A stretch of DNA of 59,560 nt from an uncultured Mycoplasmatota bacterium (GCA_900546745.1 URDT01000004.1:1-59560); one strand, 5' to 3'; shown: positions 578 to 53,789, counted from the first letter of the stretch. Numbers and translations: made by a program. Notes: generated by a model from the letters alone, not told the origin.

Positions 578-1096
578 TTATAATTCATCTTTTTTCTCTT
601 TATCAATATATTTTTGAATTTCTCTTTGATTTTTTAATATCTCATCTATTTTATTATGTAATTCCTCTATAATTAACTCACTTTTTACATCTGTATAATA
701 ATCATTCTGATTTCTTAAACTATCTTTTTTTGATTGACGATTTTGGCTCATCATAATAATTGGAGCTTGAAATGCAGCTAAACAAGATAATAATAAATTT
801 AATAAAATAAATGGATATGGGTCTATTGCATTGTTTTTTAATATAATGGTATTTAGTATAATCCAAAATGTTAAAAATAAAGCAAATAATAGAATAAAAG
901 TCCAACTACCGGCAATTGCTGAAAATTTATCTGCTAATTTTTCTCCAAACGTTAAATTAGATTCTTCTTGTTTTTCCACATCTACAGCAATTGGTTTATC
1001 TACTAATAAATCTAACAATTCATCTTCTTCTGCTTTTGTAATTTCTTGTTTTAATAAAATATTAACAATCTCTTTTCTAGTTTTATTTTTTTGCAT
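578..1096 (-). CDS. DUF1003 family membrane protein
   Basis: ORF 578..1123. The segment FGEKLADKFSAIAGSWTFI...IDPYPFILLNLLLSCLAAFQAPIIMMSQNRQSKKD matches the DUF1003 signature. Start moved to the ATG at 1094..1096 (MQKNK), which follows an AGAGGTG RBS. Confidence 0.8.
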   Translation of the reverse strand: MQKNKTRKEIVNILLKQEITKAEEDELLDLLVDKPIAVDVEKQEESNLTFGEKLADKFSAIAGSWTFILLFALFLTFWIILNTIILKNNAIDPYPFILLNLLLSCLAAFQAPIIMMSQNRQSKKDSLRNQNDYYTDVKSELIIEELHNKIDEILKNQREIQKYIDKEKKDEL

Positions 1097-1164
1097 ATTA
1101 ACACCTCTAAAAAAATTATACACCTATGTTGTTTATTTTTAATAGATTAAAGTAAAAAAGAGGA

Positions 1165-2727
1165 TTATTTTTTCCTCTTAATTTTTGAATAAAACATTTT
1201 TAAAAATAACCAAATAGTAAATAGTGCTGCTAAAAGGAGATAAAGATAAAATATAAATGGTAATTTTCCTTTATTCATTACAGCCATCACACTAATTCCA
1301 ATAATGAACGCTAAATCTAATATTGTTATAATTGCTTGATGAAAAATATCTTCTATACGGTTCATTTGATTTTTTGAATCATTTAATTCCATTTGAAATC
1401 TTAATTCTCCATTATTAATTCCTCTTAATAATGAAAGTGTCTCATTAGGGATAGAACATAAAGAATTCCCGTTTTGCAATATCTTTACAAATTCTCTTTC
1501 TAGCACATCTTTTGTGATCAATTTTTTTGCTTTTACTCTATTTTTTAAAACTTGCATCAGATTAATACTAGGGCTTATTTCTTCTAATACCCCTTCAATT
1601 ACAACAATACCGCGAATTAACATTGAAATATCTTTCGGTAAAGTAATGGAATTGGAATTTAATAATTCAAACATATCTCTGGCAAATTCTTTAATATTTA
1701 TATCTGATATTTCTGTGGTTTTATTTTTATTTAAAACTGTTTTAATATCATTTTTTAACTTCATATAGTCGATATCATTGGAACTAGTATCCATAGAAAC
1801 TAATATATGAGCTATTTCAGATGTATTATTTGAAATAATAGCATTAATACAATCATTTAATAAATTTTTATTTTTAATAGTTAATGTCCCCATCATGCCA
1901 AAATCAAGATAAACAATTTTGCCATCTTGAATTTTGATGTTGTCGGAATGAGGATCAGCATGATAATATCCATCATCAATTGCTTGCTTAATATAATTAT
2001 CTGCTAGTTTATTAGCAATTTCATTCATGTCATATCCTAATGAATTTAATTTTTCTGTTTCATTAATGAATGGAGCATCAATATATTCCATTATTAATAC
2101 ATAAGGTGTAGAAATATCTTTATATACTTTTAATGGTTTTATATAAGCTATATTTTCATTGTTATTTTTAAATCTTTCTATATGATTTGCTTCTATTATA
2201 AAGTCCATTTCCTCTTTGGCAGAATCATACATTTCATCAATAATAGCTTGCAAATCCACAATATTACCAAACAATTTATCTAATTTTAAAATAGAAATAG
2301 CCTTTTTTAATAATTTTGTGTCTAACGTCATCATCTGATAAATATTAGTTCTTTGAATTTTAACAGCTACTACTTCTTTCGATTTTAAAACACCTAAATG
2401 AGTTTGTGCAATAGAGGCGGAACCAATAGGTGTTTCGTCAATAGATTCAAAAATTTCATTAAATTTGCCATTATATTCTCTGTTTAATATTTCAAAAACT
2501 TCCTCTTTATCCATTGGCTTTACAGAACAACGCAGTTTTTTTAATTCATCTGATATAGAAGCTGGTATTAAATCACTTCTAGAAGATAAAATCTGCCCCA
2601 TCTTCACGAATGTTGGTCCTAAATCTTCTATTGTTTCCCTAATATTTTGAGGCGATTTATCTTTTAATAAATTATGCTTGTTAATAATAGAGATTATTTC
2701 TTTTAAACGAGTAGTTTCATTATTCAT
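1165..2727 (-). CDS. ABC1/UbiB (AarF) atypical kinase family protein with C-terminal TM helices
   Basis: 520 aa. N-terminal GPTFVKMGQILSSRSDLIP, then GSASIAQTH...VAVKIQR and HADPHSDNI...LDFGMMG, are ABC1 kinase-family motifs. Two C-terminal hydrophobic helices. The start overlaps the upstream gene's stop by 8 nt, indicating an operon. Confidence 0.85.
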   Translation of the reverse strand: MNNETTRLKEIISIINKHNLLKDKSPQNIRETIEDLGPTFVKMGQILSSRSDLIPASISDELKKLRCSVKPMDKEEVFEILNREYNGKFNEIFESIDETPIGSASIAQTHLGVLKSKEVVAVKIQRTNIYQMMTLDTKLLKKAISILKLDKLFGNIVDLQAIIDEMYDSAKEEMDFIIEANHIERFKNNNENIAYIKPLKVYKDISTPYVLIMEYIDAPFINETEKLNSLGYDMNEIANKLADNYIKQAIDDGYYHADPHSDNIKIQDGKIVYLDFGMMGTLTIKNKNLLNDCINAIISNNTSEIAHILVSMDTSSNDIDYMKLKNDIKTVLNKNKTTEISDINIKEFARDMFELLNSNSITLPKDISMLIRGIVVIEGVLEEISPSINLMQVLKNRVKAKKLITKDVLEREFVKILQNGNSLCSIPNETLSLLRGINNGELRFQMELNDSKNQMNRIEDIFHQAIITILDLAFIIGISVMAVMNKGKLPFIFYLYLLLAALFTIWLFLKMFYSKIKRKK

Positions 2728-3028
2728 CTTTTTTTGATTTTGTTTCCTTTAATAATTTCATAATTTCATTTTTTTCTTCTTTTGACATTTTTTGAATTGC
2801 CTCTTTTACTTCTTCTGTTGTCACTTCTTTATTTTCTACAACAACGGTAACGTTTTCTTTAATTTTTTCTTCAATATTATGTTTTAATTCTTCATTGGCA
2901 ACTTTTCCTTCTTCGTAAATTTTTGTGCCTTTTTCTAATAATTCATTCTTTATTTCTTTTGCTTTATCAGTGGTAAGAGACATTGCGCCTAATCCCATTA
3001 GCATAATGTTTTTTAATTCTTCTTTCAT
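2720..3028 (-). CDS. phasin-like small coiled-coil protein (COG3937-like)
   Basis: ORF 2720..3079, with the start moved to the ATG at 3026..3028 behind AGGAGG (3035..3040). The sequence MKEELKNIMLMGLGAMSLTTDKAKEIKNELLEKG is typical of phasin-like proteins that precede ABC1 kinases in Firmicutes. Confidence 0.6.
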   Translation of the reverse strand: MKEELKNIMLMGLGAMSLTTDKAKEIKNELLEKGTKIYEEGKVANEELKHNIEEKIKENVTVVVENKEVTTEEVKEAIQKMSKEEKNEIMKLLKETKSKKDE

Positions 3029-3049
3029 ATTATTCCTCCTATATTTTTT

Positions 3050-3079
3050 ATTATAGCACTCTATTATATTTTTATTCAA
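3050..3079 (-). promoter_or_regulatory. putative sigma-A type promoter of the phasin-like/ABC1-kinase operon
   Basis: Minus strand reads TTGAAT (3074..3079), an 18-nt spacer, then TATAAT (3050..3055). This lies just upstream of the RBS at 3035..3040. Confidence 0.5.
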
Positions 3080-3080
3080 T

Positions 3081-3097
3081 AATGACTATTAGTCATT
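3081..3097. promoter_or_regulatory. 8-1-8 palindrome AATGACTA-T-TAGTCATT, putative operator
   Basis: Perfect inverted repeat 1 nt upstream of the predicted -35. It shares the 11-bp core GACTATTAGTC with the palindrome at 10036..10052. Confidence 0.45.
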
Positions 3098-3133
3098 TAC
3101 ATTTGTTTAACAACTAAAAAAATAGATAATCAA

Positions 3134-3379
3134 TTATCTATTTCCGAATTTTTCTTTTGACTGTTCAATTTTTTGTTGTTCTACTTGTTCTACTTGATAC
3201 CAACCTTTTTGTTCCATAAAAGTAAATATTTCATTTTGTAGGTCTAAACATTCATTTAAAGTATTATGAAAAGCTTTATGAATATCAGGTGTTGAAGATT
3301 CTACACTTCCATGATACAAAATATCGCTAATATTTTTAGTAGATGTTAAGATTGTGTTCATAATTAATTTTGATTCCAT
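3134..3379 (-). CDS. spore coat protein, CotF-like (coat F domain)
   Basis: 81 aa. DILYHGSVESSTPDIHKAFHNTLNECLDLQNEIFTFMEQKGWY resembles the Coat_F domain. AGGAGG RBS upstream. Confidence 0.65.
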   Translation of the reverse strand: MESKLIMNTILTSTKNISDILYHGSVESSTPDIHKAFHNTLNECLDLQNEIFTFMEQKGWYQVEQVEQQKIEQSKEKFGNR

Positions 3380-6508: not shown

Positions 6509-8020
6509 TTATATTTTTTCAATTAATTTTTTATAATTTTTCCATAACTCTTTTACAAATATTGATTGATTTTTATTTGGTATTAATAAATAGATTTTGT
6601 TTTTTGTACGTGTAAGTGCTACATAAAAAAGTCTTCTTTCTTCATCATATGGATATTTTGCGGAAGATTTTGACACAAGCCTTAATATCTTATTATTTTT
6701 AATTTGACTTGGAAAACCTAACAATTCATCCTTCATATTAATAAGAATTACATTTTCTTCTTCTAATCCTTTTGATTTATGTACTGTTAAGTAAGTTATT
6801 TTAATATTATCATCTAATTTATAAATAATTTCATTCTCTTTTACTTTAAAATACCTATAATCCAATACGGAGTGAATATCTTTATTATTTCGTCCTAACA
6901 CTAAAATTGGTTTTTGCGTTTCTTTATAAATTTTCTTTATTAATTCTTGAAATTGTTGCTTTAAATTCACATAATTTACAAAGACAATTGGTTTATCTAT
7001 TCTCTTACTAGATTTTAAATTTTTCTTTAGTTGTGCTTTATTTTTCATTACGAATTTTCCTGCAACTTGAATCAATTCTTGGCTATTTCGATATGTATTT
7101 TCTATTCTCATGACTTTAGAATCTTTAAAATAAGAATTAAAATTTAAAAATAAGGATAAATCACAACCTGTGAAACGATATATAGATTGAAAATCATCTC
7201 CTACCACCATTAATTTAGCATTTGTAAAATTTAATATTTCTTTTACTAAGTTAAATCTTACAAGTGAAGTATCTTGATATTCGTCAATCATTACATATTG
7301 AACTTTCTCACGGTACCCTTCTTTTTGGATTTTTTCCGTTGCTCTTATTAACATATCATCAAAGTCAATTTCGTTGTTTAGTTTTAAATATTCTTCATAT
7401 TCTAAATAACAATTTAAAATAAGTGTTAATATGGATTTTTCTTTTTTATATGAAAAAGATTTTTTAATTTTTTTAGAAAACTTTATAAAATCGTTTAGTT
7501 CATAGTTATTACATTTAAATAAGTGAATAAAAGTGGATATTAAGCGTTGTAACAAAATAATTTTGCTATCACCTTTTTCATAATTTTTAATATATTCTTC
7601 TTTATTTTTTAATGAAAAATATTTTAGAGTTAATGACATTATTTCTGGATAATTTAATATTTTTGTTTTAAAGAATTCGTCAATAATATAATCTAAAGTA
7701 CTAGGATCTGCTATAGTATAGTTATGATCTTCTTTCAAAATATTGAGCGCTAATTTATGAAAAGTATAGACAGGAATTTCAAAGTTAAATTCGTTTTTTA
7801 TTTTTTCTCTTAGGCTATCAGAAGATGCTTTTGTGAATGAAATACAAATAATTTCATTTGGTGAAATATTTTTTACCTTTACTAAATAATAAATTTTTCC
7901 TAATATAGTTAGTGTTTTTCCACTTCCTGCTCCTGCAACAACTAATAAATGATTGCTTTCATCTTCGACAATTGCTTTTTGTTGATTATCTAAATCATAT
8001 CCACATATTTTTTGATTCAT
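6509..8020 (-). CDS. compact UvrD/Rep-family (SF1) helicase
   Basis: 503 aa. Motifs present: AGAGSGKT (motif I), IDEYQDTS (II), VGDDFQSIY (III), TVHKSKGLE (V) and YVALTRTK (VI). Confidence 0.8.
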   Translation of the reverse strand: MNQKICGYDLDNQQKAIVEDESNHLLVVAGAGSGKTLTILGKIYYLVKVKNISPNEIICISFTKASSDSLREKIKNEFNFEIPVYTFHKLALNILKEDHNYTIADPSTLDYIIDEFFKTKILNYPEIMSLTLKYFSLKNKEEYIKNYEKGDSKIILLQRLISTFIHLFKCNNYELNDFIKFSKKIKKSFSYKKEKSILTLILNCYLEYEEYLKLNNEIDFDDMLIRATEKIQKEGYREKVQYVMIDEYQDTSLVRFNLVKEILNFTNAKLMVVGDDFQSIYRFTGCDLSLFLNFNSYFKDSKVMRIENTYRNSQELIQVAGKFVMKNKAQLKKNLKSSKRIDKPIVFVNYVNLKQQFQELIKKIYKETQKPILVLGRNNKDIHSVLDYRYFKVKENEIIYKLDDNIKITYLTVHKSKGLEEENVILINMKDELLGFPSQIKNNKILRLVSKSSAKYPYDEERRLFYVALTRTKNKIYLLIPNKNQSIFVKELWKNYKKLIEKI

Positions 8021-35034: not shown

Positions 35035-36987
35035 TTATGATTTTCCTTTTAGTTCAAATAAGATATCACGAAGTTCTGTTGCTCTTTCAAATTCAAGGTT
35101 TTTAGCAGCTTCTTTCATTTCTGTTTCTATTTGAGTTATTAAATTTAATTTTTCTTCTTTCGTCATTTTCTTTATTGTTTTTGTTTCCACTTTTTTATTA
35201 TTAGAAACAACATCTCTAATTTCTTTTTTTATTGTTTGTGGAATTATATGATTCTCTTTATTATATTCTTCTTGAATTTTTCTACGTCGATTTGTTTCAC
35301 CAATTGCATAGTTCATAGCATCACTAATATGATCAGCATACATAATTACGTGACCACTTGCATTTCTAGCAGCTCTACCTATTGTTTGAATTAAACTTCT
35401 TTCACTTCGTAAAAATCCTTGTTTATCAGCATCCATGATAGCAACTAGACTAACTTCGGGAATATCCAACCCTTCACGTAATAAGTTAATTCCAACTAAT
35501 ACATCATATTTACCAATTCGCAAATCATGAATAATTTGAAGGCGTTCTAAGGTTTTTATTTCACTATGTAAATAAGCTACTTTAATATCTAAATTTTTTA
35601 AATATGTTGTTAATTCTTCTGCCATTCGAATTGTTAATGTTGTTACTAAAGTTCGTTCATTCAATTCTATTCTTTTGTTAATCTCTCCTATTAAGTCATC
35701 TATTTGACCTACCATTGGTTTTACCTCAATTGTAGGATCTAAAAGTCCAGTTGGTCTTATTATTTGTTCGATAACATTATTATTTACTTTTTCTAATTCA
35801 TAGTCTCCTGGTGTAGCAGATACGCAAATTATCTGATTAATCTTTTTTTCGAATTCAGGAAATTTTAAAGGACGATTATCCATTGCACTAGGAAGTCTAA
35901 ATCCATAATCAACTAATACTTTTTTTCTAGCTTGATCACCGTTATACATTCCTCTCACTTGTGGTAATGTAACGTGAGATTCATCTACTACTAATAAGTA
36001 ATCATCTGGAAAAAAATCTATTAATGTTGTTGGAGTCGCACCTGCTGGTTTTAAGGCTAAATGTCTAGAATAATTTTCAACACCTCTACAGCTACCCGTT
36101 TCAGACAACATTTCTAAATCATAGTTTGTTCTTTCCATTAGTCTTTGATATTCTAATAGTTTATTTTCTTTTTTTAAATAGGCTAATCTTTCTTCTAATT
36201 CTTCTTTAATGTTTTTTACGGCTTTCTTTATTTTTTCATTGTTTGTTACAAAATGACTTGCTGCAAATAAGGAAATTGAGTTTTTTTCTGTTAAAACTTT
36301 TCCTGTTACAATATCAAATTCTACAATTTTATCTATCTCTTCACCAAAAAATTCAATTCTAATTCCTTTTTCGTGCCAACTAATAGGAACTATCTCTAAT
36401 ATATCTCCATGAACACGAAATGTTCCTCTTTTTAATTCAATATTATTTCTCTCATAAAACATATCTACTAATTTCATGATTAGATTGTCTCTATCAATTT
36501 CATCACCGACATTTACTGTAAGCATTTTATCTTTATAGTCTTCTACTTCACCAATTCCGTAAATACAAGAAACACTAGCTACTACAATTACATCTCTTCT
36601 TGTAAGTAAAGCTGAAGTAGCAGCATGTCTTAATTCATCAATTTCATCATTAATTGAAGCATCCTTTTCAATATAGGTATCTGAAGAAGCAACGTAAGCT
36701 TCTGGTTGATAATAGTCATAATAAGATACAAAATACTCTACTCTATTATTAGGAAATAATTCTTTTAATTCTGAATAGAGTTGTCCTGCAAGTGTTTTAT
36801 TATGAGCTAAAACTAGAGTTGGTTTGTTCACTTTTTCTATTACGTTTGCAATTGTGAATGTTTTTCCTGTTCCTGTCGCCCCTAGTAAAACCTGGTATTT
36901 TTCACCATTTTCTATTCCATTTACTAAGCTTTCTATAGCCTGTGGTTGATCTCCACTTGGTTTATATTTTGATATTAATTCAAACAT
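35035..36987 (-). CDS. uvrB: excinuclease ABC subunit B
   Basis: 650 aa. [27 protein letters not shown], the helicase C domain and the C-terminal UVR motif (FERATELRD). Confidence 0.95.
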
Positions 36988-37168
36988 AATGACCTCCTTA
37001 TATGATTATTAATAATCTAAACTTCATACCCTATAACTGATTGAATAGGTTAAATTTTAACAGATAAACAGAAAATGTACACCTCAATCACAAATTTACT
37101 AAATAAAATAATATTCACTATTTCCTAACAATATATTTTTTAAGAATTTAATTATAATTTTGATATTT

Positions 37169-38134
37169 TTATTTAAAATAAGCTTTTCTTTTAGTTCTGG
37201 GTATCTGATTTCTAATTGATTCAATTTCTTGTTCTAATATTTCTTCTTTATCAGTTTTATGAAAAATATAATCAGCTTGTTCTAATTCAAATTTTTTTGA
37301 TTGGTCATTCCAAAAATACCTAGGAACTCTTTTTATTTGCCAATCCATAAGCAACCAATTATAAAAACGCTCATTAATATTGATACAGGAAGTGGTTATA
37401 GTTCTAGGATTATTGGAAAATTTATAGCCATTAGAGCTATCATAAATATTATTAAATATATTCAAATCAGCATACGGGATTGCCCTTTCAATAGAATCAT
37501 ATCCTAAGTATTGAACACAAAAATCTTTCATATAGGACATTAAGTTAACTACTAAATATTGATGATAAAATTCCATTATTTTACTATCATCTTGAATATT
37601 ATATTTTTTAGCAATAAAATCTCTGTTTTCAACACAAATAATTTTACCGACTGAACCAAAAAAATCATTATTAGAATAGAGTTTTTGAAAGAAGCATACC
37701 ATGTCACATCGTAATGTATCAAAAACGTCTCTCTGACCATAACCATATTCTTGAGCTAATTTAGCATTAACAATTTCTTGTTCAAAATTACGTTGTAATG
37801 TATCTAAGAATGTTTTATAAGTTATATGATTAAAATAATTATTATATTCAACTTCTCTTATTACGATATCATCAATACCTTCATATTTATTCATTTCTAA
37901 AAATTCTTCGTATCCTTCGAATTTAAATTTTGGAATTTTTTGATTTTTAATAATAAAACTTATAAAATTTAAAAAAATAGGAGTTACCGGATTTCTCCAA
38001 TTATCATGTCCATATTCTCCAATTAAAATACTATAATCTATAATTTTACCTTGTGGATTAATATAACCAATTAAAGGTAGTCCAGTAAATTGTTCAATTT
38101 TTAATATTTCTTGTTCATTAAAATCTATCGTCAT
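37169..38134 (-). CDS. hypothetical protein (321 aa), cassette A of the uvrB-upstream patch
   Basis: Long ORF with an RBS-like AGGAGAAC before the ATG. No motif or family recognised. Rich in Y/F/N/W, with no TM helix or signal peptide. Confidence 0.5.
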   Translation of the reverse strand: MTIDFNEQEILKIEQFTGLPLIGYINPQGKIIDYSILIGEYGHDNWRNPVTPIFLNFISFIIKNQKIPKFKFEGYEEFLEMNKYEGIDDIVIREVEYNNYFNHITYKTFLDTLQRNFEQEIVNAKLAQEYGYGQRDVFDTLRCDMVCFFQKLYSNNDFFGSVGKIICVENRDFIAKKYNIQDDSKIMEFYHQYLVVNLMSYMKDFCVQYLGYDSIERAIPYADLNIFNNIYDSSNGYKFSNNPRTITTSCININERFYNWLLMDWQIKRVPRYFWNDQSKKFELEQADYIFHKTDKEEILEQEIESIRNQIPRTKRKAYFK

Positions 38135-38254
38135 AAAGTTCTCCTATAAATTGAAATACATCATATCACAAATTTACATTTTATTACTTAGCCTTTTTAT
38201 GGTATTTTCGAAAAATTAAATAAAACTTAAAAGTAATAAATAAGACAGTTTTAA

Positions 38255-38472
38255 AAATAATTCTTTTAATTCTGAATAGAGTTGTCCTGCAAGTATTTTA
38301 TTATAAGCTAAAACTAAGGTTGGTTTATTCACCTTTTTCTATTACATTTGCAATTGTGAATGTTTTTCCTGTTGCCCCTAGTAAAACTTGGTTTTTTTCA
38401 CCATTTTCGATTGCCTTTACTAAGCTTTTTATAGCTTGTGGTTGGTCTATATTTTAATACTACTTCAAACAT
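38255..38472 (-). pseudogene. decayed duplicate of the uvrB 5' end (codons 1 to about 78)
   Basis: Aligns by eye with 36754..36987. It begins with a 40-nt perfect match (38255..38294 = 36754..36793) and keeps the ATG (38470..38472). It also has a 1-nt insertion, a 6-nt deletion in the Walker-A coding segment and a 9-nt deletion. Confidence 0.8.
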
Positions 38473-38596
38473 ACTAGTCACCTATTTACTGTACACTATT
38501 TTACCATTTATTATTTACATTAAAACTAAAATTAATATAATGTTTTAAGTTAATTGAAGTTTAATCGTAAAAATTTAAATTCATTTAATATTAATA

Positions 38597-38977
38597 CTAC
38601 CAACTTTCCTTTATTTCTTCATATTCCATGTTATCACAAATTACAGAAAATGATGGCTCCATTTCATCACTAGCAAAATACATATATTCTTTATTATCCA
38701 TTTTAATATATTTTATAATTGCTTCGTCAATGTAATCGCTAAACCTATCGTCATCTCTATATTCCTTAATACCATTAAAGGTTATTTTCATCTTTGTTCT
38801 ATTTGTTTCAATTGAATTATCTTCGTTTAATATTGGTTCAAAAGACCAAAAAACATCTATTAAAATATCTATTTTGTCTTTTTCCAACTCAAATTTAATA
38901 TCTTTTATATAACTGTCATGAAAATAATAATACGACTCCATAAATTCATTTAAATTATTTTTAGTTATTTTATTCAC
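38597..38977 (-). CDS. hypothetical small acidic protein (126 aa), cassette B
   Basis: ORF with a GGAGG RBS. Acidic and cytoplasmic-looking. Its size and composition recall orphan immunity proteins, but no family is recognised. Confidence 0.5.
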   Translation of the reverse strand: MNKITKNNLNEFMESYYYFHDSYIKDIKFELEKDKIDILIDVFWSFEPILNEDNSIETNRTKMKITFNGIKEYRDDDRFSDYIDEAIIKYIKMDNKEYMYFASDEMEPSFSVICDNMEYEEIKESW

Positions 38978-39164
38978 AAAATTTACCTCCTAATATTTAT
39001 AATTATTAAACAATTATTAACATGTATTACTATATGAAACAAGGTAGTAGTATAATTACTTGAAAATTTTTGTTTAACTTCACATATAACTGTACAATAA
39101 ATATCTTATTATAAACTAAAGATGATATTGATTTATCACATTTATAATCATAATTTTTATTACT

Positions 39165-39265
39165 CTTAGTAAAATCTATGTTTTTTACCATTTTCTATTT
39201 TTTTACTAAAATTTCTATAGTTTGTGGTAAATCTTCACTTAGTTTAAATTTTTTATATTTAATCT
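39165..39265 (-). pseudogene. second, more diverged remnant of the extreme 5' end of uvrB
   Basis: cttagtaaaatctatgttttttaccattttctatttttttactaaaatttctatagtttgtggtaaatcttcactt... aligns with uvrB 36881..36980 (cctagtaaaacctggtatttttcaccattttctattccatttactaagctttctatagcctgtggttgatctccactt...). The ATG is lost. Confidence 0.55.
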
Positions 39266-39393
39266 ATAATTATTAATATCATGTGTTTTAATTATTCATC
39301 ATATTGAAATATTTTATTTTTTAACAATTATATTTACTTCATTAATATAATTGTTAATTCTTTTTTACAATACATCTTATATCAGAAATATTG

Positions 39394-40185
39394 TTATTTA
39401 AAAATATTGCTTTTTTTTAGTACTTCACATAAATCTACTTCTAAACAATATTCTACAAATTGATTATCTTTTTCAACAATATTATTAGAAACTAAATAAT
39501 CAGAAACAACATTTGCAAGCGGATACTGTAATAAAACATTTACTATACCTTCCGAAATATCATATTTGATTATCTTTTTCACTTTAGTTATATCTATATC
39601 CTTTTCATCAATATTACCCTTTTTTTCATACAGATCTTCGTAATATAACTGACTACTAATTGCATCAATCATTTTGGATTCAAAAAATAATCTATTATTC
39701 CTTCTAGTAAATATTAAATGCTCATACTTATCAGAGCATAGATATTGTTCTAATTTTTTTTCTAAATAAAATGCCCATGTTTCTGATAAAAACCAATATC
39801 TATCTTCTATTATTTTTGGATTACTATTTCTATCAATATAATGAGCTAATTCATGGACTAACATGAAAATATCACTATCATTACCATTTAATCTTATGAA
39901 TGCTTCATTTATAGATGTATCGACATAAGATTTGCAACTATCATTTATTATTATTTTTCCTTCTTTGATTCCACTGATAATCATATTGTAGTATTCACTA
40001 TTGTACTGTTTATAAAATTGAAGAACTATTTTCATAGGACTATTAATAAGTTTTGTGTATTCTTCTTTTTTATAATCATTACTAAAATGTTTTGCTAACA
40101 AATCAATTACATCTCTTTCAATGAATTTTCTATACTTCACTTCTGATTTTATCTTTTCTATAAATTCTTGGTTATTCAATTGCAT
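39394..40185 (-). CDS. putative gluzincin-type metallopeptidase (HEXXH + E), cassette C
   Basis: 263 aa. FMLVHELAHYIDRN is followed about 25 aa later by FLSETWAFYLE, the HEXXH...E arrangement of M3-like peptidases. No signal peptide. Confidence 0.5.
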   Translation of the reverse strand: MQLNNQEFIEKIKSEVKYRKFIERDVIDLLAKHFSNDYKKEEYTKLINSPMKIVLQFYKQYNSEYYNMIISGIKEGKIIINDSCKSYVDTSINEAFIRLNGNDSDIFMLVHELAHYIDRNSNPKIIEDRYWFLSETWAFYLEKKLEQYLCSDKYEHLIFTRRNNRLFFESKMIDAISSQLYYEDLYEKKGNIDEKDIDITKVKKIIKYDISEGIVNVLLQYPLANVVSDYLVSNNIVEKDNQFVEYCLEVDLCEVLKKSNIFK

Positions 40186-40525
40186 ATAATCCTTCCTTGA
40201 TAACTCATTTGTATCAGATTTTAATATTTTTATTTTATCATTGATTGCTTTTTAAAGCAACGAAATATCATTTTTCAGATATTCATTTGTCAATAAAATA
40301 GTTTTTATACTTTAATTACATAAAAATACATAATATTTAATTGGAAGGAGAAATGGACATGAATAACTGCAATTGTAATGATGATTATGAAAGTGCTAGA
40401 AAAAAATAGAAGAATGTAATAAAAATATAAAATTTTGCGATATTCAAGGTCCGACTGGTCCTAAAGGAGAAAAAGGGGATCCTAGTTCTATAGGATTACA
40501 AGGAAAAGTTGGACCAACGGGACCT

Positions 40526-41224
40526 ATGGGACCAAAGGGTGAAAATGGTCCAACCACGATTGAAATAGGAAAAATAGAAACAGTTAACCCAGAAATGAAC
40601 GCAGAGGTTATTAATACTGGGACAAATCAAGATATTATCCTAAATTTTAAAATTCCAAGAGGTATGGATGGAATACAGGGGCCTCAAGGACCAATAGGTC
40701 CTATGGGACTTCAAGGAGAACAAGGTATAGAAGGTCCTAAAGGAGAGAAAGGAGATCCTGGAGAAAAGGGAGAACAAGGAGAAGATGGAACGAGTAATGA
40801 CATTTTATATAACTCCTTATTTTTTGTGGATATTCCGGAAACAACAGTTGCGGGAATTGCACAGGTTGGCTCGTCAAAAAAGATACCAAATACGGATGAA
40901 TATTTTAAAATTAGTGAGTCGAGAAATATTAATATACAACAATCTGGTACCTACGAAATAACTTTAAATGGCAAAATTTCAGGGGTTACTTCCACAATTG
41001 GAGCTTCCTTTTATTTATATGATGTAACGAACAAAAAAAAAATATCTAATTCAACCTTACAATTAAGAAAAGGAAATATTTCAGAAATGACTTTTTCGAA
41101 ATTATTCTTATTAGAAGTAAATAATTTAATACAATTACAATTAAGAACAGAAATAGAAAATAATCAAACAGATAATATTACTTTTTCAGACATCAATATA
41201 CTAATAAAAAAATATAACATATAA
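40526..41224 (+). CDS. collagen-like triple-helix repeat protein (BclA/tail-fibre-like), apparently 5'-truncated by a frameshift
   Basis: G-X-Y run GPQGPIGPMGLQGEQGIEGPKGEKGDPGEKGEQGEDG, then a beta-rich C-terminal domain of about 130 aa. More G-X-Y coding sequence continues upstream in the same frame to 40400. A separate RBS plus ATG sits at 40353/40359 in another frame. Confidence 0.8.
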   Translation: MGPKGENGPTTIEIGKIETVNPEMNAEVINTGTNQDIILNFKIPRGMDGIQGPQGPIGPMGLQGEQGIEGPKGEKGDPGEKGEQGEDGTSNDILYNSLFFVDIPETTVAGIAQVGSSKKIPNTDEYFKISESRNINIQQSGTYEITLNGKISGVTSTIGASFYLYDVTNKKKISNSTLQLRKGNISEMTFSKLFLLEVNNLIQLQLRTEIENNQTDNITFSDINILIKKYNI

Positions 41225-41264
41225 TAACTTATTTTAAATATAATAAATAGATTTCTATAATTTT

Positions 41265-41290
41265 ACTGGCCATTAGGCTGGTTTTTTTTA
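41265..41290 (+). terminator. intrinsic terminator of the collagen-like gene
   Basis: ACUGGCC-AUUA-GGCUGGU hairpin (7 bp including two G-U pairs) followed by a T8 run. Confidence 0.6.
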
Positions 41291-41346
41291 TAACTACATT
41301 TTATAAATTTTCATATAATTTATAAAAAAAATGTATAGATACATTT

Positions 41347-42999
41347 CTATACATTTTTATCAATTTTGAATGTAACTTCGTAGCTATCTTCTAAATCAAT
41401 TTCTTCTGTTTCGATTTTAAAGCCATATTTTTCAATTGTTGCTGCACAATCTCTAATTGTATTAATTACAGTTTTCATATCAGCAGTGACAAAACGTTGA
41501 TTAGTTTGTGGTATAGGTACTTCTATATCGCCATTTTCATCGAATTTGACATTCTTATTTACAGAAAAGTTATCCATAACTTTTTCACTAGCATTCATAT
41601 TAGTAAAACTATCATCATCTGTTAAATTTAATGGTTCTATTGGCTTAGAAAAATCTACTAAATTAGAATCGAAACCATCATTATTGTTAGACACTACATT
41701 ATTTTCCACAGATATAGGTTTTGGTGTAGGATAAATAGATTCTTCTGGTGTCGAATCATCAGTTACTTGATTATTATAGTTTTCCACAGGTTGTTGTTGA
41801 AAACTATTAAATGAGTCATTCATTTGTTCATTTTTTGGTTCTTCCTTAACTGATGGTTGGGCAAATAAAGAATCTGTTCCAAAAATATTTGATGGATTTG
41901 ATATTGGTTCTCCAAAATCCATATTTACTTGTTTATCTTCTATATCTTCAACATAATTTGGATTCGTTTCTGAATTATTTATTCCAAACATATTAAAGAA
42001 TTTTCCACCCGTTACGGGAACTGTTTCTTCCTCTTTCTGCTCTGGTTGTTGTTCTACTTGCGACATAATATCTACAGGTTGTTCTGTTGGTTTTAATAAT
42101 TCATTTATATCGGCTGGTTCAGCTGGTTCTTTTACGATATCTGTAGCTTCTTTTTCAATTTTATCAATATCCATAAAGCCAGGATTAACATCTGAATTGT
42201 AGTTTTCCACAGGTTGTTGTGGAATATTTGTTTTTTGTTCTGGTTCTTCGTCTTCAAAAACAAATGAAGGTTGATTATTTTCTATAATGGGCTCTGTTGG
42301 AATATTAAATTCTTTTATTGTATCATCATTCATTGTCATTTCTCCCTTAGTTATTTCTTTTGCTTCATTATCTGATGTTGAATTATCAGATGAAGTACTA
42401 TTTAATAACTTTTCTATTTCTTCATCTGTCTTTCTAACAGTCATTCTTTCATTCATAATTCTATTTAACATTAATATTTGTTGATCATTATTTAATTTTA
42501 ATAATGATCTAGCATGTCTTTCTGAAATTTTGTTTTCCATCAAAGCTACCTGTACTTCATCATACAAATTCAAAAGTCTTAATTTATTAGCTATTGTTGA
42601 TTGCTTTTTACCTAGTTTTTCACCCAATGCCTCTTGACTAATATATCCCATATCCAAAATCTTTTTATACGAGATAGCTTCTTCTATTGGTGTTAAATCT
42701 TGACGTTGGACGTTTTCTATTAAAGCTACTTCAGCACTATTTTTATCATCTAGTGATGTAATAATTGCAGGAATTGTTGTTTTTCCCGCTAATATACTAG
42801 CTTTATATCTTCTCTCACCAGCTATAATTTCATATTTATCACTGATTTTTCTTACAACAATTGGCTGAATTACACCATGCAATTTAATAGATTCGGCAAG
42901 TTCATTAATTGCTTGTTCATTAAATTTAATTCTAGGTTGGAATCTATTTGGTAAAATATCATCAATGTTTAAAATTTGAATTTGTTTTTCCATTTCCAT
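41347..42999 (-). CDS. noc: Noc-type ParB-family protein with a low-complexity insertion of about 300 aa
   Basis: ParB N-terminal domain (PNRFQPR, GERRYKAS). The HTH region LGKKQSTIANKLRLLNL...ISERHARSLL and the C-terminus TADMKTVINTIRDCAATIEKYGFKIETEEIDLEDSYEVTFKI match Bacillus Noc rather than Spo0J. Located directly after rsmG. ATG at 42997..42999 behind AAGGAGG. Confidence 0.8.
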   Translation of the reverse strand: MEMEKQIQILNIDDILPNRFQPRIKFNEQAINELAESIKLHGVIQPIVVRKISDKYEIIAGERRYKASILAGKTTIPAIITSLDDKNSAEVALIENVQRQDLTPIEEAISYKKILDMGYISQEALGEKLGKKQSTIANKLRLLNLYDEVQVALMENKISERHARSLLKLNNDQQILMLNRIMNERMTVRKTDEEIEKLLNSTSSDNSTSDNEAKEITKGEMTMNDDTIKEFNIPTEPIIENNQPSFVFEDEEPEQKTNIPQQPVENYNSDVNPGFMDIDKIEKEATDIVKEPAEPADINELLKPTEQPVDIMSQVEQQPEQKEEETVPVTGGKFFNMFGINNSETNPNYVEDIEDKQVNMDFGEPISNPSNIFGTDSLFAQPSVKEEPKNEQMNDSFNSFQQQPVENYNNQVTDDSTPEESIYPTPKPISVENNVVSNNNDGFDSNLVDFSKPIEPLNLTDDDSFTNMNASEKVMDNFSVNKNVKFDENGDIEVPIPQTNQRFVTADMKTVINTIRDCAATIEKYGFKIETEEIDLEDSYEVTFKIDKNV

Positions 43000-43037
43000 A
43001 AAAACGCCCTCCTTTATTCTTAAATATACTATACTAT

Positions 43038-43072
43038 ATTTTGGGAAATAATTCAATATTTTTGGGAAATAA
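43038..43072. repeat. two direct copies of TTGGGAAATAA (NBS half-site GGGAAAT/ATTTCCC) in the noc promoter region
   Basis: tattttgggaaataa at 43037..43051 and tatttttgggaaataa at 43057..43072. The GGGAAAT cores are at 43043..43049 and 43064..43070, 21 bp apart. Confidence 0.4.
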
Positions 43073-49852: not shown

Positions 49853-49965
49853 TTCATTTCTTTTGTATTATACTATATATTCACTATTATTAGCAAATCA
49901 CTTATTTTCGTATAGTTATTATTATTTTGTGTACTATTAACATCATATTGAATTTTGAAATAAAA

Positions 49966-49990
49966 ATAAAAAAAACACAAATAAGTGTTT
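49966..49990 (-). terminator. weak hairpin plus U-run after rpmH (attenuator before rnpA)
   Basis: Arms aaacac (49973..49978) and gtgttt (49985..49990). On the minus strand a U-rich run follows. The stem touches the rpmH stop codon. Confidence 0.35.
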
Positions 49991-50111
49991 AATGTGATAA
50001 AACTTTACGACCTTTTCGTCTACGATTATTAATAATGTTAGTTTTCATACGAGCAAAAAAACCTTGTTTTTTACTTCTTTTTCTATTATTAGGTTGATAA
50101 GTTCTTTTCAT
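49989..50111 (-). CDS. rpmH: 50S ribosomal protein L34
   Basis: [43 protein letters not shown] at 50109..50111 behind AGGAGGTA. The ORF-track extension to 50231 is non-coding oriC sequence. Confidence 0.9.
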
Positions 50112-50508
50112 AGCTATACCTCCTTTTTTATATAAATTCGCATTTGCTTTATCAATTATATATATATTTGTTGGATTTGTCAAATATTTTTTCTTTCCAC
50201 AGTTATTTTTAATAAAAAACATTCTCCACATTATAAAACTATTTTATTTTTCTTTATAATATATGAAAAATTTTATTTTTTACACATTTCCACTGAAAAA
50301 AAATTATTGTATTTCACAATGTGCATAATTAATATTAACTTATTCCACAAATTATGTTAATTTCTATTATTTTTATTGTATTTCAATGTTTTTTTTGTGG
50401 AAAAATACTGTTAATAATACTTTTTTTACGATTTTTCCACTTTTTTCTTTGTTTTTCTATAAAAATAATGTAGAATATAGGTGAATATTTGAGCAGGAGG
50501 TGTATCAT
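50112..50508. other. oriC, dnaA-upstream DnaA-box cluster
   Basis: 9-mers related to TTATCCACA: CTTTCCACA 50194..50202, TTCTCCACA 50222..50230, (T)TATTCCACA 50341..50349, TGTGGAAAA 50396..50404 (inverted) and TTTTCCACT 50433..50441. It lies between rpmH and dnaA at the point where gene orientation flips. Confidence 0.7.
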
Positions 50509-51861
50509 ATGGATAATTCGCAACTTTGGAATTCTTTTTTAGAGCGGATTCAATCTGAATTATCACCTGTAACATATGATACTTGGTTCGCCGACACTAG
50601 AATTGTAAAAATTGAAAACAATATTGTTACTTTGGCAGTTCCTATGCATGTACATAAAAAAATGTTGAGTGAGAATTATAATGAAATGATTGAAGAAATA
50701 TTTACTGAAATTTCTGGTTCTAACTTCAAATTTGATTATTTAACAGAAGATGAAATTACAGAAAATATCACAATCGATACAGAAAATATAGGGGTACCAT
50801 CTATTTCTACATTTGAGACTAATTTAAAACCAAATTACACCTTTGATAACTTTATAGTAGGAGAGAGTAATAAATTTGCGAAATTAACAGCTTTTGCAGT
50901 AGCCGAGAAACCGGGTCAAATGTATAATCCTTTATTTATATATGGAAGTAGTGGGTTAGGAAAAACTCACTTGATGCATGCAATTGGAAATTATGCTATG
51001 AAAAATAGTAAGAGTAGGGTATTATATGTAACAAGTGAAAAATTTATTGATGATTTTGTTGGAATTAGCAAGAAAGCAACAGATGAGCCAAATTTTGATA
51101 AAGTGGCATTATTTAAGAAAAAATATCGTGATATTGATATTTTAATCATCGATGACATTCAATATCTTGGAACAGGTGCTAAAACGCAACAAGAATTTTT
51201 CAACACTTTTAATGAATTATATGATAAAAATAAACAAATTATTATTTCTTCAGATCGTTCTCCAGATGATTTAAAATTACTTGAAGAACGTTTAACCACA
51301 AGATTTAACTGGGGAATTACAATTAACATAGAACCTCCAGATTTTGAACTTCGTTTAAAAATTATTGAAGATAAAGTAAAAGGGCATATGTTATCCAATC
51401 CTTTTCCAAAAGATGTTCAAGAATTTATTGCAAGTAACTGTACAAGTGATATTAGAAAACTAGAAGGAGCAATTACTAGGGTAGTTGCTTATGCAGCTAT
51501 GATGAGTGGAAGTCCTATTACTTTAGATTTAGCAAATGAGGCACTTAAAGGATTTTTTGTAAAAACTGTTGTTTCTAAAAATAAAGTAGAGCAGGTACAA
51601 CAACTTGTAGCAAATCATTATAATATTACAGTAGAAGATATGAAAAGTAAAAGAAGGATGGCAAGTATTGCCTTTCCAAGACAAGTTGCTATGTATATTT
51701 GTAGAACAGAACTAAATGAGTCATTTCCCAAGATTGGAATCGAATTTGGGGGAAAAGATCATACTACAGTAATGCACTCTGTAGATAAAATTAAAAAACA
51801 ACTAAAAAGTAATAAAGAATTACAAATAGAAATAGCTAAAATTATTGAAAAGATTTCTTAA
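50509..51861 (+). CDS. dnaA: chromosomal replication initiator protein DnaA
   Basis: NPLFIYGSSGLGKTHL, IDDIQYL, DIRKLEGA and the C-terminal box-binding domain (PRQVAMYICRELT-like, DHTTVMH). ATG at 50509 behind AGGAGG. Confidence 0.97.
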   Translation: MDNSQLWNSFLERIQSELSPVTYDTWFADTRIVKIENNIVTLAVPMHVHKKMLSENYNEMIEEIFTEISGSNFKFDYLTEDEITENITIDTENIGVPSISTFETNLKPNYTFDNFIVGESNKFAKLTAFAVAEKPGQMYNPLFIYGSSGLGKTHLMHAIGNYAMKNSKSRVLYVTSEKFIDDFVGISKKATDEPNFDKVALFKKKYRDIDILIIDDIQYLGTGAKTQQEFFNTFNELYDKNKQIIISSDRSPDDLKLLEERLTTRFNWGITINIEPPDFELRLKIIEDKVKGHMLSNPFPKDVQEFIASNCTSDIRKLEGAITRVVAYAAMMSGSPITLDLANEALKGFFVKTVVSKNKVEQVQQLVANHYNITVEDMKSKRRMASIAFPRQVAMYICRTELNESFPKIGIEFGGKDHTTVMHSVDKIKKQLKSNKELQIEIAKIIEKIS

Positions 51862-52008
51862 CAGTGGATAATTACATTTTATTAACACTTTATTAACAAT
51901 TAAAAACGTAAATTATCCCTTATTTTTCAAGGATTTATTTAGTTTTCAACATTTTCCACTTTAATAATAATAATAAAATATAAATAATTATAATTAGGAG
52001 GTATATAT
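51862..52008. other. oriC, dnaA-dnaN spacer with DnaA boxes and an AT-rich unwinding candidate
   Basis: AGTGGATAA at 51863..51871 (one mismatch, inverted) and TTTTCCACT at 51952..51960. A nearly pure A/T run follows at 51961..51995 (ttaataataataataaaatataaataattataatt). Confidence 0.6.
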
Positions 52009-53130
52009 ATGAATATAGAAATTAAACAAGATATATTATTAGAAAACTTAAACTATGTAATAAGAGGAATATCTACAAAAAATATTATTCCAATTTTGAA
52101 CTGTATTAAATTTGAGTTAACTGATGAAGGTTTATACATGACAAGTACAGATAATGAAAGTGCTATTAGAACCTTTATTCCTAGCTCTAGTATTGAATCG
52201 ATTAATTCGATAGGAAAAATTGTTATTTCTGGAAAATATATTTATGATATTGTTAGGAAACTTCCTAATACTATTATAAAAATTGAAGAATTTATAGATA
52301 ATAAGATTAATATATCTACTTCTAATTCCTCTTTTGATTTAAATTGCAATAATGTTAATGAATTTCCAGAATTAGATTTAAGTGATAGTAAATATCCTTT
52401 CCAAATCACTAGAACTGCATTTAAAAAATTAGTAAAACAAACTTCTTTTGCAGCATCAACTCAAGAGAATCGTCCAGAATTTACAGGAATTAATTTCAAA
52501 ATTAACGAAAATTTATTAGAATGTACATCAACAGATTCCTATCGTTTAGCAAAAAAAGAAATAACATTAATGTCTAAATTAGAAGATTCTATTAATATTA
52601 TTATTCCAACTAGAAATTTGAATGAATTAGAAAAAATGCTTTCTGATAATGATAGACCTATTGAAATTCATATTTTTAATAACAAAGTTATATTTAAATT
52701 TGATAATATTATAGTGATGAGTCGTTTAATTAATGGTGAATATCCTGATACAAATCGATTAATTCCAACAGAATTTAAATTAACATTAACTATGAATTGG
52801 GAGGAATTTTATCAAGCAATTGATAGAGCTTCTCTTTTAACAAGTGAATTTGATAAAAATACTATTAAATTACATTATTCTAATGGAATAGTTGAAATTT
52901 CTTCAAATATTCCAGAAATCGGTCATGTAGAAGAAAAAATGAATGTAGAAGCAAATTCTACTGAAGAATTGAAAATTGCATTTTCATCAAAATATATGTT
53001 AGATGCGTTAAAGGCTGTGGAATGTGATAAAATTGCTGTAAAATTTAATGGAGAAGAAAAACCAATTATTATTAAAGATGTGGATAACAGTGATGTTACT
53101 CAATTGATTCTTCCGGTTAAAACATATTAA
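52009..53130 (+). CDS. dnaN: DNA polymerase III beta sliding clamp
   Basis: 373 aa with three-domain clamp organisation. ILNCIKFEL, TSTDSYRLA and LMSRLINGEYPD. Confidence 0.95.
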   Translation: MNIEIKQDILLENLNYVIRGISTKNIIPILNCIKFELTDEGLYMTSTDNESAIRTFIPSSSIESINSIGKIVISGKYIYDIVRKLPNTIIKIEEFIDNKINISTSNSSFDLNCNNVNEFPELDLSDSKYPFQITRTAFKKLVKQTSFAASTQENRPEFTGINFKINENLLECTSTDSYRLAKKEITLMSKLEDSINIIIPTRNLNELEKMLSDNDRPIEIHIFNNKVIFKFDNIIVMSRLINGEYPDTNRLIPTEFKLTLTMNWEEFYQAIDRASLLTSEFDKNTIKLHYSNGIVEISSNIPEIGHVEEKMNVEANSTEELKIAFSSKYMLDALKAVECDKIAVKFNGEEKPIIIKDVDNSDVTQLILPVKTY

Positions 53131-53156
53131 AATAGGAATTTTCCTATTTTTTTCTT
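53131..53156 (+). terminator. intrinsic terminator after dnaN
   Basis: aataggaa/ttcctatt inverted repeat (53131..53148) followed by a T-run. Confidence 0.6.
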
Positions 53157-53230
53157 TTTCAACAGAAATCGACATATCTAATGATTATAGTAGTAGCCAT
53201 TAGCTTTGCTAATTAGGGGGAGGTGGATAA

Positions 53231-53680
53231 ATGGATAATTATGAAATAAACAGGAAAACTATTGTAATTATTCCTTTATCAAACAATAAATCGAAAGTGG
53301 TAGAAGAGGATAGGGAATATATTGTATTAAAAAAATCAACAGAAATTGTAGACCATAGTTGTAGATATTTTGGAAGTTCTTTTCTTGGACGTCATGAAGG
53401 AACAAAAAATTTAATAGGTGTAAGTTATAAGACACCTATATTGATAGAAGAAACTAATAATATTATATTTTTTCCAACTAGTTCTTCTAGAGCAGATGAT
53501 TGCTATTGGATTTCTTTGGAACAAATTAATGATTATAATGATTATGAGGGAAATTCAAAAATTATTTTTAAAAATGGTTATGAATTAATTTTAAATATTT
53601 CAATAGGATCTTTAGAAAATCAAATTTTAAGATCAACTAGATTAGAATCAGTTATAAGAAAAAGAAGAAAAATAAGCTAA
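53231..53680 (+). CDS. comK: ComK-family competence transcription factor homologue
   Basis: 149 aa. IVDHSCRYFGSSFLGRHEGTKNLIGVSYKTPILIEETNNIIFFPTSS...CYWIS...IIFKNGYELILNISIGSLENQILRSTRL aligns with B. subtilis ComK (IVDRSCRFFGSSYAGRKAGT...PPIMV...FLFPTLS...GWIS...SFENQVYRTAWL). RBS GGGGGAGGTGG. Confidence 0.75.
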   Translation: MDNYEINRKTIVIIPLSNNKSKVVEEDREYIVLKKSTEIVDHSCRYFGSSFLGRHEGTKNLIGVSYKTPILIEETNNIIFFPTSSSRADDCYWISLEQINDYNDYEGNSKIIFKNGYELILNISIGSLENQILRSTRLESVIRKRRKIS

Positions 53681-53696
53681 ATGCTTATTTTTTCTT
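53671..53696 (+). terminator. intrinsic terminator after the comK-like gene
   Basis: aataagc (53671..53677) / gcttatt (53683..53689) hairpin spanning the stop codon, followed by a T-run. Confidence 0.5.
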
Positions 53697-53789
53697 TGAT
53701 TTTGTGATATAATTGTTTATAGGTACAGGTGTACTAAGAATAGTTATATTTTGAAAAATAGGCCATTTTATAAAAAAAGAAGGTGTATA

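Follow-up and report, generated by a model that had tools for sequence, protein, structure and literature searches.

Displaced copies of the uvrB 5' end in uncultured gut Bacilli as probable remnants of integrative elements that target the gene

In an uncultured Mycoplasmatota bacterium, the excision repair gene uvrB is preceded by two progressively decayed copies of its own 5' end, with unrelated genes between them. The array lies in a stretch of 59,560 nucleotides (nt) (GCA_900546745.1 URDT01000004.1:1-59560), here called the window. Most probably, uvrB is targeted by site-specific integrative elements that supply a replacement promoter and 5' end; integration and decay would leave integrase-less cassettes, and the array in the window would be an old, immobile fossil of this process. 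The first-pass annotation of the window, made from its sequence alone, had likewise proposed serial insertion of segments that each bring a new 5' end, and this reading gains support from an end point near nt 270 of uvrB common to many copies, from a conserved sequence beyond it, from integrases in relatives, and from differences between strains. The nested, decaying copies of the start of an essential repair gene would thus be accounted for by a known process, and a widespread family of elements, some conjugative and some decayed, would use uvrB as its attachment site in uncultured Bacilli of the human and animal gut.

Both copies genuinely derive from the uvrB 5' end, with scores well clear of AT-rich background, and the claim that this segment recurs twice upstream of the gene is borne out. 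Copy 1 matches uvrB nt 1-234 at 201 of 218 bases (Smith-Waterman score 303-306), and the clear part of copy 2 matches nt 12-105 at 76 of 92 bases (score 86-90), against a top score of 33 for any unrelated alignment in the whole window on either strand; the suspicion that copy 2 might be mere AT-rich background therefore fails. Copy 2 was also recovered in a profile search (E = 0.0036). Copy 1 carries at its gene-internal end a perfect 40-nt block (36754-36793 = 38255-38294), and its span, this block, a 1-nt insertion and a 6-nt deletion in the Walker-A segment are as first described, but the third indel is a deletion of 11 nt rather than 9. Its reading frame meets a stop after ~24 codons. Copy 2 is diverged and has lost its ATG, as noted earlier, but it probably exceeds the ~100 nt then assigned to it: past a ~28-nt deletion it would continue, in order, to uvrB nt ~268 at ~39031. 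This extension has moderate support (z = 3.3) and tentatively retains the canonical junction TTTCATAT/AGTAATAC at ~39031/39030. Each interval holds one same-strand open reading frame (ORF), again as first reported; they encode proteins of 321 and 126 amino acids (aa) and are called g321 and g126 (Table 1).

Truncated starts of this kind (uvrB') recur in other species. Comparison loci and contigs are given L numbers, L001 being a duplicate of the window. A pattern scan of one genome per species yielded 105 uvrB loci of uncultured gut Bacilli, labelled 'Bacilli bacterium', 'Firmicutes bacterium CAG:582' or Erysipelotrichaceae (metagenome-assembled genomes), and 101 of them hold an intact uvrB start. 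Extra uvrB' copies or a linked element were found at 14 of the 101, counting the window and its duplicate. The truncated starts span approximately codons 1-90, lie upstream of intact uvrB, and are without exception oriented as uvrB. At ten other loci they end at nt 267-276, mostly after TCTTATTAT at nt 270. When a 92-aa uvrB' was used in a protein search, the best 120 matches were all ORFs of 88-161 aa, several of them present on more than 100 contigs. In a related species (L003), a uvrB' copy precedes a homologue of g321, and both belong to a longer array of same-strand genes without assigned function.

Directly past the uvrB' end point lies a conserved sequence of ~145 nt (conserved end, CE), which is common to cassettes with unrelated genes. 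A CE model trained without the window and without any integrative and conjugative element (ICE) detected the CE of the window (E = 8.4e-10) as well as ICE left ends at L239, L253 and L256 (E ~1e-10 to 1e-11) and L150 (E = 1e-4), and found no match in the empty-site strains described below. In the window, a composite alignment of the left attachment site (attL) reveals that 46 nt are deleted across the junction of the g321 unit, comprising uvrB nt 235-270 and the start of the CE. A 13-mer that had been singled out as shared between the regions upstream of uvrB and of g321 is indeed present at 37087..37099, with its second site at 38165..38177 instead of 38167..38179; it is not significant alone, two matches arising in 11 of 100 shuffles, but it belongs to the CE and to a shorter CE-like stretch upstream of functional uvrB. 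The CE holds two or three direct copies of a 10-nt motif, e.g., ATTCGTGTCC, and each uvrB or uvrB' start codon is preceded, at a distance of 45-70 nt, by two or three copies of the inverse motif. Between elements the motif varies, yet its two orientations always match (ATTCGTGTCC/GGACACGAAT, ATTGTCCC/GGGACAAT and TTCGTACA/TGTACGAA). The ATTCGTRTCC-type repeats of the CE may be the arm-binding sites of an integrase; the paired motifs could be protein-binding sites, or form an RNA or DNA hairpin. Examples of such pairs lie at L045 3888..3975, L235 17480..17600, and L168 6300..6400. Rfam contains no match for the CE or the array. A transposon or miniature inverted-repeat transposable element with inverted ATTCGTRTCC-type ends, or an attC-like hairpin, was considered and dropped after integrases and ICE genes had been found at the two ends.

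These integrases and conjugation genes come from relatives. In L017 and L149-L154, uvrB' and CE are followed by genes for ParA, ParB, a SpaA-type adhesin, and a sortase, and in L149-L154 then by SSB, a DUF3991/Toprim primase, MobC, and a relaxase (PF03432), with DUF3801 also present; this stretch is evidently the left part of a conjugative element. A related ICE in another species (L256 and L257) has the same start, with ParA, ParB, SpaA adhesin, and sortase genes after uvrB' and CE, and a decayed version of it is found in the same species (L253-L255). In L235-L242, the order is uvrB' and CE, 7.3 kb of further DNA, the C-terminal half of a tyrosine recombinase, ~290 nt, and intact uvrB, so that L235 holds a whole decayed element. 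In L168, an excisionase-like gene (HTH_17) accompanies two tyrosine integrases, both of them intact (399 and 439 aa; PF00589, E = 1e-17 to 1e-19), and 298 nt then lead to the uvrB ATG. Integrase remnants also lie directly upstream of uvrB or uvrB' in L079, L026, and L149 (6391-6678). It is only in relatives that an integrase stands next to one attachment (att) site, and the conjugation and mobilisation genes of intact members are likewise found there. A phage source was sought and rejected: BLAST of 36700-41400 against phage records returned only uvrB and collagen-repeat matches, an IMG/VR scan with UvrB aa 1-91 returned only full-length uvrB, and a scan with the L168 integrase found no match.

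Two loci of one species narrow down the crossover. L239 and L235 do not differ between positions -320 and +259, counted from the uvrB start, and past this point L239 has ICE-type bases at nt 260-266, shared bases at 267-275, and, from 276, CE, ParA, and ParB. An ICE has evidently integrated into a uvrB already fronted by the decayed element, with the crossover left of nt 260. The outer copy in L235 matches its gene perfectly at nt 216-253, with differences on both sides, and the perfect block of the window covers nt 195-234. The best guess for the crossover region is the overlap of the two blocks (GAATTAAAAGAATTATT), and the 40-nt block of the window probably contains it.

The leaders in front of the uvrB starts differ in type. 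Functional uvrB carries an element-type upstream region with promoter, leader, and ribosome-binding site (RBS), which includes the short version of the CE with the 13-mer and shows no relation to what natively precedes uvrB in empty-site strains of this species; the element that integrated last may have supplied it as its P arm. In front of both copies 1 and 2 stand remnants of a leader of the native type; in the native leader itself, the RBS reads AAAGGTGATAATATG. Together with its leader remnant, copy 1 matches the native upstream region and 5' end of L174, L243, and L247 at 82-83% over 279 nt, and copy 2 matches those of L243 and L247 at 73-74% over 153 nt. An element-type leader on the functional gene and native-type leaders on the copies are what displacement by element-borne starts predicts.

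Occupied and empty sites can be compared between close relatives (L235 with L239; the window with L174, L243, and L247). Contigs of the window's species, chosen by identical GidB, represent 22 places. In ~16 of these, two NCBI assemblies among them, noc and uvrB are separated by 310 nt (the empty site); five carry the window-type island; and one (L247) has the order noc, collagen-like gene, native upstream region, uvrB. No further state of the interval was seen in the species. Comparison of the uvrB-noc interval across relatives, which had been recommended when the copies were first noticed, thus finds variable content beside a uvrB that stays intact. In the species of L095 and L097, noc adjoins uvrB. 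The island (36988..40227, 3240 nt) replaces 94 nt of native leader and starts directly behind the native uvrB promoter. L247 is identical to the window up to 40228 and divergent beyond, with the left junction of the island at 40227/40228; as this is directly behind the native -10 box, the leftmost island gene, g263, now stands behind the native uvrB promoter. The flanks of the island are 98-99.5% identical between strains.

The repeats with their common end point, the CE, the integrases and conjugation genes of relatives, and the strain polymorphisms, all of them directly observed, fit the following scheme, in which the order of events in the window, the position of the crossover, and the role of the CE as an integrase-binding arm are what we infer from sequence comparison. 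The elements would be integrative and conjugative or mobilisable, reside in uncultured gut Bacilli, and encode a tyrosine integrase that recombines the element's own site, attP, with a site inside uvrB. Crossover would take place within ~nt 216-253, in the codons for ELKELFP. On one side of attP, beside the integrase gene, the P arm would carry a replacement promoter, a leader, and uvrB codons 1-90; the P' arm on the other side would be the CE. Plain insertion would destroy uvrB, and this would be avoided because the element brings a replacement start: integration would rebuild an intact uvrB behind element-supplied DNA, and the former promoter and 5' end would come to lie on the far side, as a non-functional fragment attached to the CE. 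A later element would enter the rebuilt gene and push everything outward (accretion), while older elements would lose the integrase and most other genes and shrink to short integrase-less cassettes. Layer one in the window would then consist of copy 2 and g126, and layer two of copy 1, CE, g321, and the element-type upstream region, with g263 as a further gene inserted behind the native promoter. With the junction of the inner layer deleted and no integrase at hand, the array would be immobile.

Several points weigh against this scheme. No integrase or integrase remnant was found anywhere in the 59.5-kb window, which extends the earlier remark that no integrase or recombinase ORF is visible in 36988..41346, so the link to integrases depends on relatives, and among these no single contig was recovered with an intact element and both of its ends. 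The leftmost gene, g263, has no uvrB copy to its left and adjoins the native promoter directly, so at least one insertion went by another route. Island and empty-site strains differ by one base in uvrB nt 1-388, and no foreign origin is therefore visible in the coding 5' end in the window's species; homogenisation through recombination among strains would account for this, as would a donor element from the species itself. A comparison of identities over nt 1-270 and nt 271-990, across all pairs of 164 uvrB genes, looked for 5' ends shared between distant hosts and gave no outliers, a result that carries little information. Divergence from the native sequence is 17% for copy 1 and 26% for copy 2, compared with 0.5% between strains, so the layers are of some age and do not date from the strain's recent past; the island appears to have moved or persisted as one 3.24-kb block rather than to have been built recently in this strain. 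Lastly, some metagenome assemblies of uvrB repeats are unreliable. A 44-nt 'core-only' uvrB copy in L003 adjoins a run of Ns (6816..6830), where repeats may be collapsed, and was not relied on. L002 is a contig of the same strain whose first 141 nt are inverted (= window 38442..38582, in a MEGAHIT k141 contig), a chimeric end that most likely arose in assembly, at a short palindrome.

Other readings are less probable. An unlikely extension of the proposed scheme would make uvrB codons ~65-90 a standing gene-capture site, at which CE+ORF cassettes are still moved in trans by resident ICE integrases and expressed from displaced copies of the uvrB promoter. If true, an integron-like system would sit on a DNA-repair gene, and its cargo, including defence-like genes such as those at L089 (below), could fall under DNA-damage-linked control. 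It is less likely that no integrase is involved and that circles of one cassette and one repeat, looped out by RecA, re-enter uvrB by single-crossover homologous recombination, e.g., after natural transformation. In its favour are repeats of 270-475 nt, frequently with 85-100% identity, cassettes without a recombinase gene, an island that acts as one block between its nearly identical flanks, and a ComK-like gene near oriC; indeed, homologous recombination probably does carry the finished island between strains. Such recombination nevertheless leaves unexplained the shared end position of copies in many species whose cargo differs, the conserved CE that follows this position and is shared with ICE ends, the integrase genes or remnants at the other end, and the ICE-type bases of L239 at nt 260-266, beyond the crossover.

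Slightly further down in probability, and distinctly improbable, comes a true integron-like platform, with codons ~65-90 as insertion site and CE+ORF single-gene cassettes that are moved in trans by an integrase encoded elsewhere and are not decay products at all. Many units do consist of the CE and one ORF that ends at its stop codon (0.6-2.3 kb), cargo families of the g321, g380, g140, and g198 type recur in differing order in several species, and g321 is 85% identical at the nt level between the window and L003, compared with 73% for uvrB of the same pair. As in integron arrays, mostly single-gene, same-strand units are ordered at one insertion point, the newest nearest to it. Against this, integrase remnants lie inside cassettes of L149, L235, L079, and L026, which indicates decay from larger elements; the ORFs end directly at the next copy of the upstream region, with no common downstream site, and have no attC-like site after them; no integrase is fixed beside the array; and in the window's species no shuffling of single cassettes was seen among the three interval states. 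Integrons are defined by intI and attI with an attC for each cassette, and the window array has neither an adjacent intI nor an attC per ORF, its repeats being the start of a host gene and the related units bearing their own integrase remnants. That the uvrB start was merely duplicated locally in tandem and then diverged, with no tie to gene gain, can practically be dismissed: the copies are direct repeats near the gene, but unrelated ORFs and a CE shared with mobile elements of other species lie between them, where a simple duplication would leave nothing foreign, and empty-site strains and species exist.

The preferred reading, displacement by integrative elements with a replacement gene start, has precedents. 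In a three-step model, integration is followed by decay to a cis-mobilizable element (CIME), and a new element then enters the att site that carries the gene end (PMC5704250). ICESt1 and ICESt3, at the 3' end of fda in Streptococcus thermophilus, resemble the uvrB elements in using the end of a housekeeping gene, in decaying to little beyond att sites, and in accretion (PMC5704250), which there too produces direct repeats arranged in order, the oldest on the outside. They differ in that the uvrB target is a 5' end, with a repeat that holds promoter, leader, and ~90 codons (~270-475 nt). The strict definition of a CIME includes functional attL and attR; with the 46-nt attL deletion in the g321 unit and the heavy decay of copy 2, the inner attL of the window has lost its junction and the units are no longer true CIMEs. 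Tyrosine integrases are known to target 3' or 5' ends of housekeeping genes, the 5' targets including ftsK, rbgA, and ebfC, with direct repeats of 12-54 bp (PMC4701971), and Tn5253 uses an 83-bp attB in rbgA (PMC6079316). The streptococcal ICEs in these genes share with the uvrB elements a tyrosine integrase, the 5' part of a conserved gene, and repeats that overlap gene start and upstream region, but the uvrB-like segment exceeds those repeats several-fold in length and extends 270 nt into the gene, and its hosts are uncultured gut Bacilli. In Escherichia coli, element e14 and phage 21 carry a substitute end of icd, so that the gene stays intact and a displaced pseudo-end remains; unlike in the uvrB array, it is the 3' end that is replaced, by a single element, without promoter replacement or a multi-layer array. 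Text searches of a literature library turned up no account of uvrB serving as a natural attachment site. The process itself is known; what is new is the choice of uvrB, how long a gene start and promoter are carried, the clade of the hosts, and how abundant the scars are.

Table 1. Features of the uvrB array in the window (positions from the first letter of the 59,560-nt stretch).
Feature	Position	Strand	Basis
Intact uvrB, 650 aa, target gene	35035..36987	minus	ORF and Pfam domains UvrB, UvrB_inter, Helicase_C, UVR
uvrB nt 1-270, attR-side repeat, segment proposed to be duplicated per integration	36718..36987	minus	End points in ten other loci
Element-type upstream region of functional uvrB (promoter, leader, RBS ..CATATAAGGAGGTCATTATG)	36988..37168	minus	Homologous to L003, L013, L038 upstream regions
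Cargo gene g321, 321 aa	37169..38134	minus	ORF
CE, conserved left-end sequence of the element family (putative P' arm), first ~10 nt missing	38158..38253	minus	nhmmer E = 1.7e-15
Copy 1, displaced uvrB 5' end (nt 1-234), pseudogene with three indels	38255..38472	minus	Alignment
Native-type uvrB leader and RBS remnant (..AGGTGACTAGTATG) ahead of copy 1	38473..38516	minus	Aligns with L174, L243, L247
Cargo gene g126, 126 aa	38597..38977	minus	ORF
Copy 2, older displaced uvrB 5' end	39031..39265	minus	Clear part 39163-39254; rest tentative
Native-type leader remnant ahead of copy 2	39266..39317	minus	Aligns with L243, L247
g263, 263 aa, HExxH motif, leftmost island gene	39394..40185	minus	ORF
Native uvrB promoter region, now before g263	40228..40300	minus	-10 box GATAAAAT at 40232-40239

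At least 85 homologues of the cargo gene g321 (~320 aa) exist, none of them annotated, and the protein has no match in Pfam, NCBIfam, PADLOC, PHROGs, or PDB sequences. Its AlphaFold model is confident (pLDDT 86.9, pTM 0.87), and fold searches with the model gave no structural match in PDB or BFVD; the cargo would thus include a protein family that is predicted to be well folded and lacks a known structural relative. In another lineage, g321 lies between rpmE and rpiB, with no flanking repeats (L007 8001..8972). The product of g126 matches no family in Pfam, NCBIfam, PADLOC, or PHROGs and no PDB sequence. For g263, searches of Pfam, NCBIfam, PADLOC, PHROGs, and PDB sequences gave nothing beyond one weak, sub-threshold match to DUF2172. 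Both g126 and g263 occur only in strains with the island.

Hundreds of metagenome contigs carry a truncated uvrB ORF. In the protein collection searched, hundreds of 88-161-aa ORFs with ResIII/DEAD Pfam hits are truncated UvrB N-termini at element junctions, and size classes of 91, 94, 102, and 116 aa correspond to different junction types. ORFs of 90-160 aa with such hits would be scars of attL, and a search for them could be an easy way to find the elements. As the elements replace the promoter and leader of uvrB, they may also change how the host regulates nucleotide excision repair. At L089, a 2.1-kb gene pair (837..2974), by eye encoding an AAA-type ATPase and an RloB-like protein and thus defence-like, separates the promoter of a displaced uvrB' copy (2975..3257) from the RBS, inserted exactly between the two. 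This copy is 100% identical to the functional one over 283 nt, and the insertion points to the uvrB 5' leader as a second insertion point.

Beyond the island, the collagen-like gene of the window (40361..41224, plus strand) is similar to tail-fibre proteins of phages in PHROGs. In-frame stops sever its N-terminal part (from ~40361), and across strains the gene encodes 232 aa or 175 aa, is internally deleted, or is reduced to its last ~50 nt. The neighbouring Noc/ParB homologue (41347..43056) has a low-complexity acidic C-terminal extension of ~350 aa past its ParB_N and helix-turn-helix domains. The replication origin region lies at ~49900..53700, with the minimum of cumulative GC skew near 50,000, dnaA at 50500..51861, and the minus-strand gene order rnpA-yidC-jag-mnmE-mnmG-rsmG-noc; the ComK-like gene (149 aa, 53231..53680) follows dnaN.

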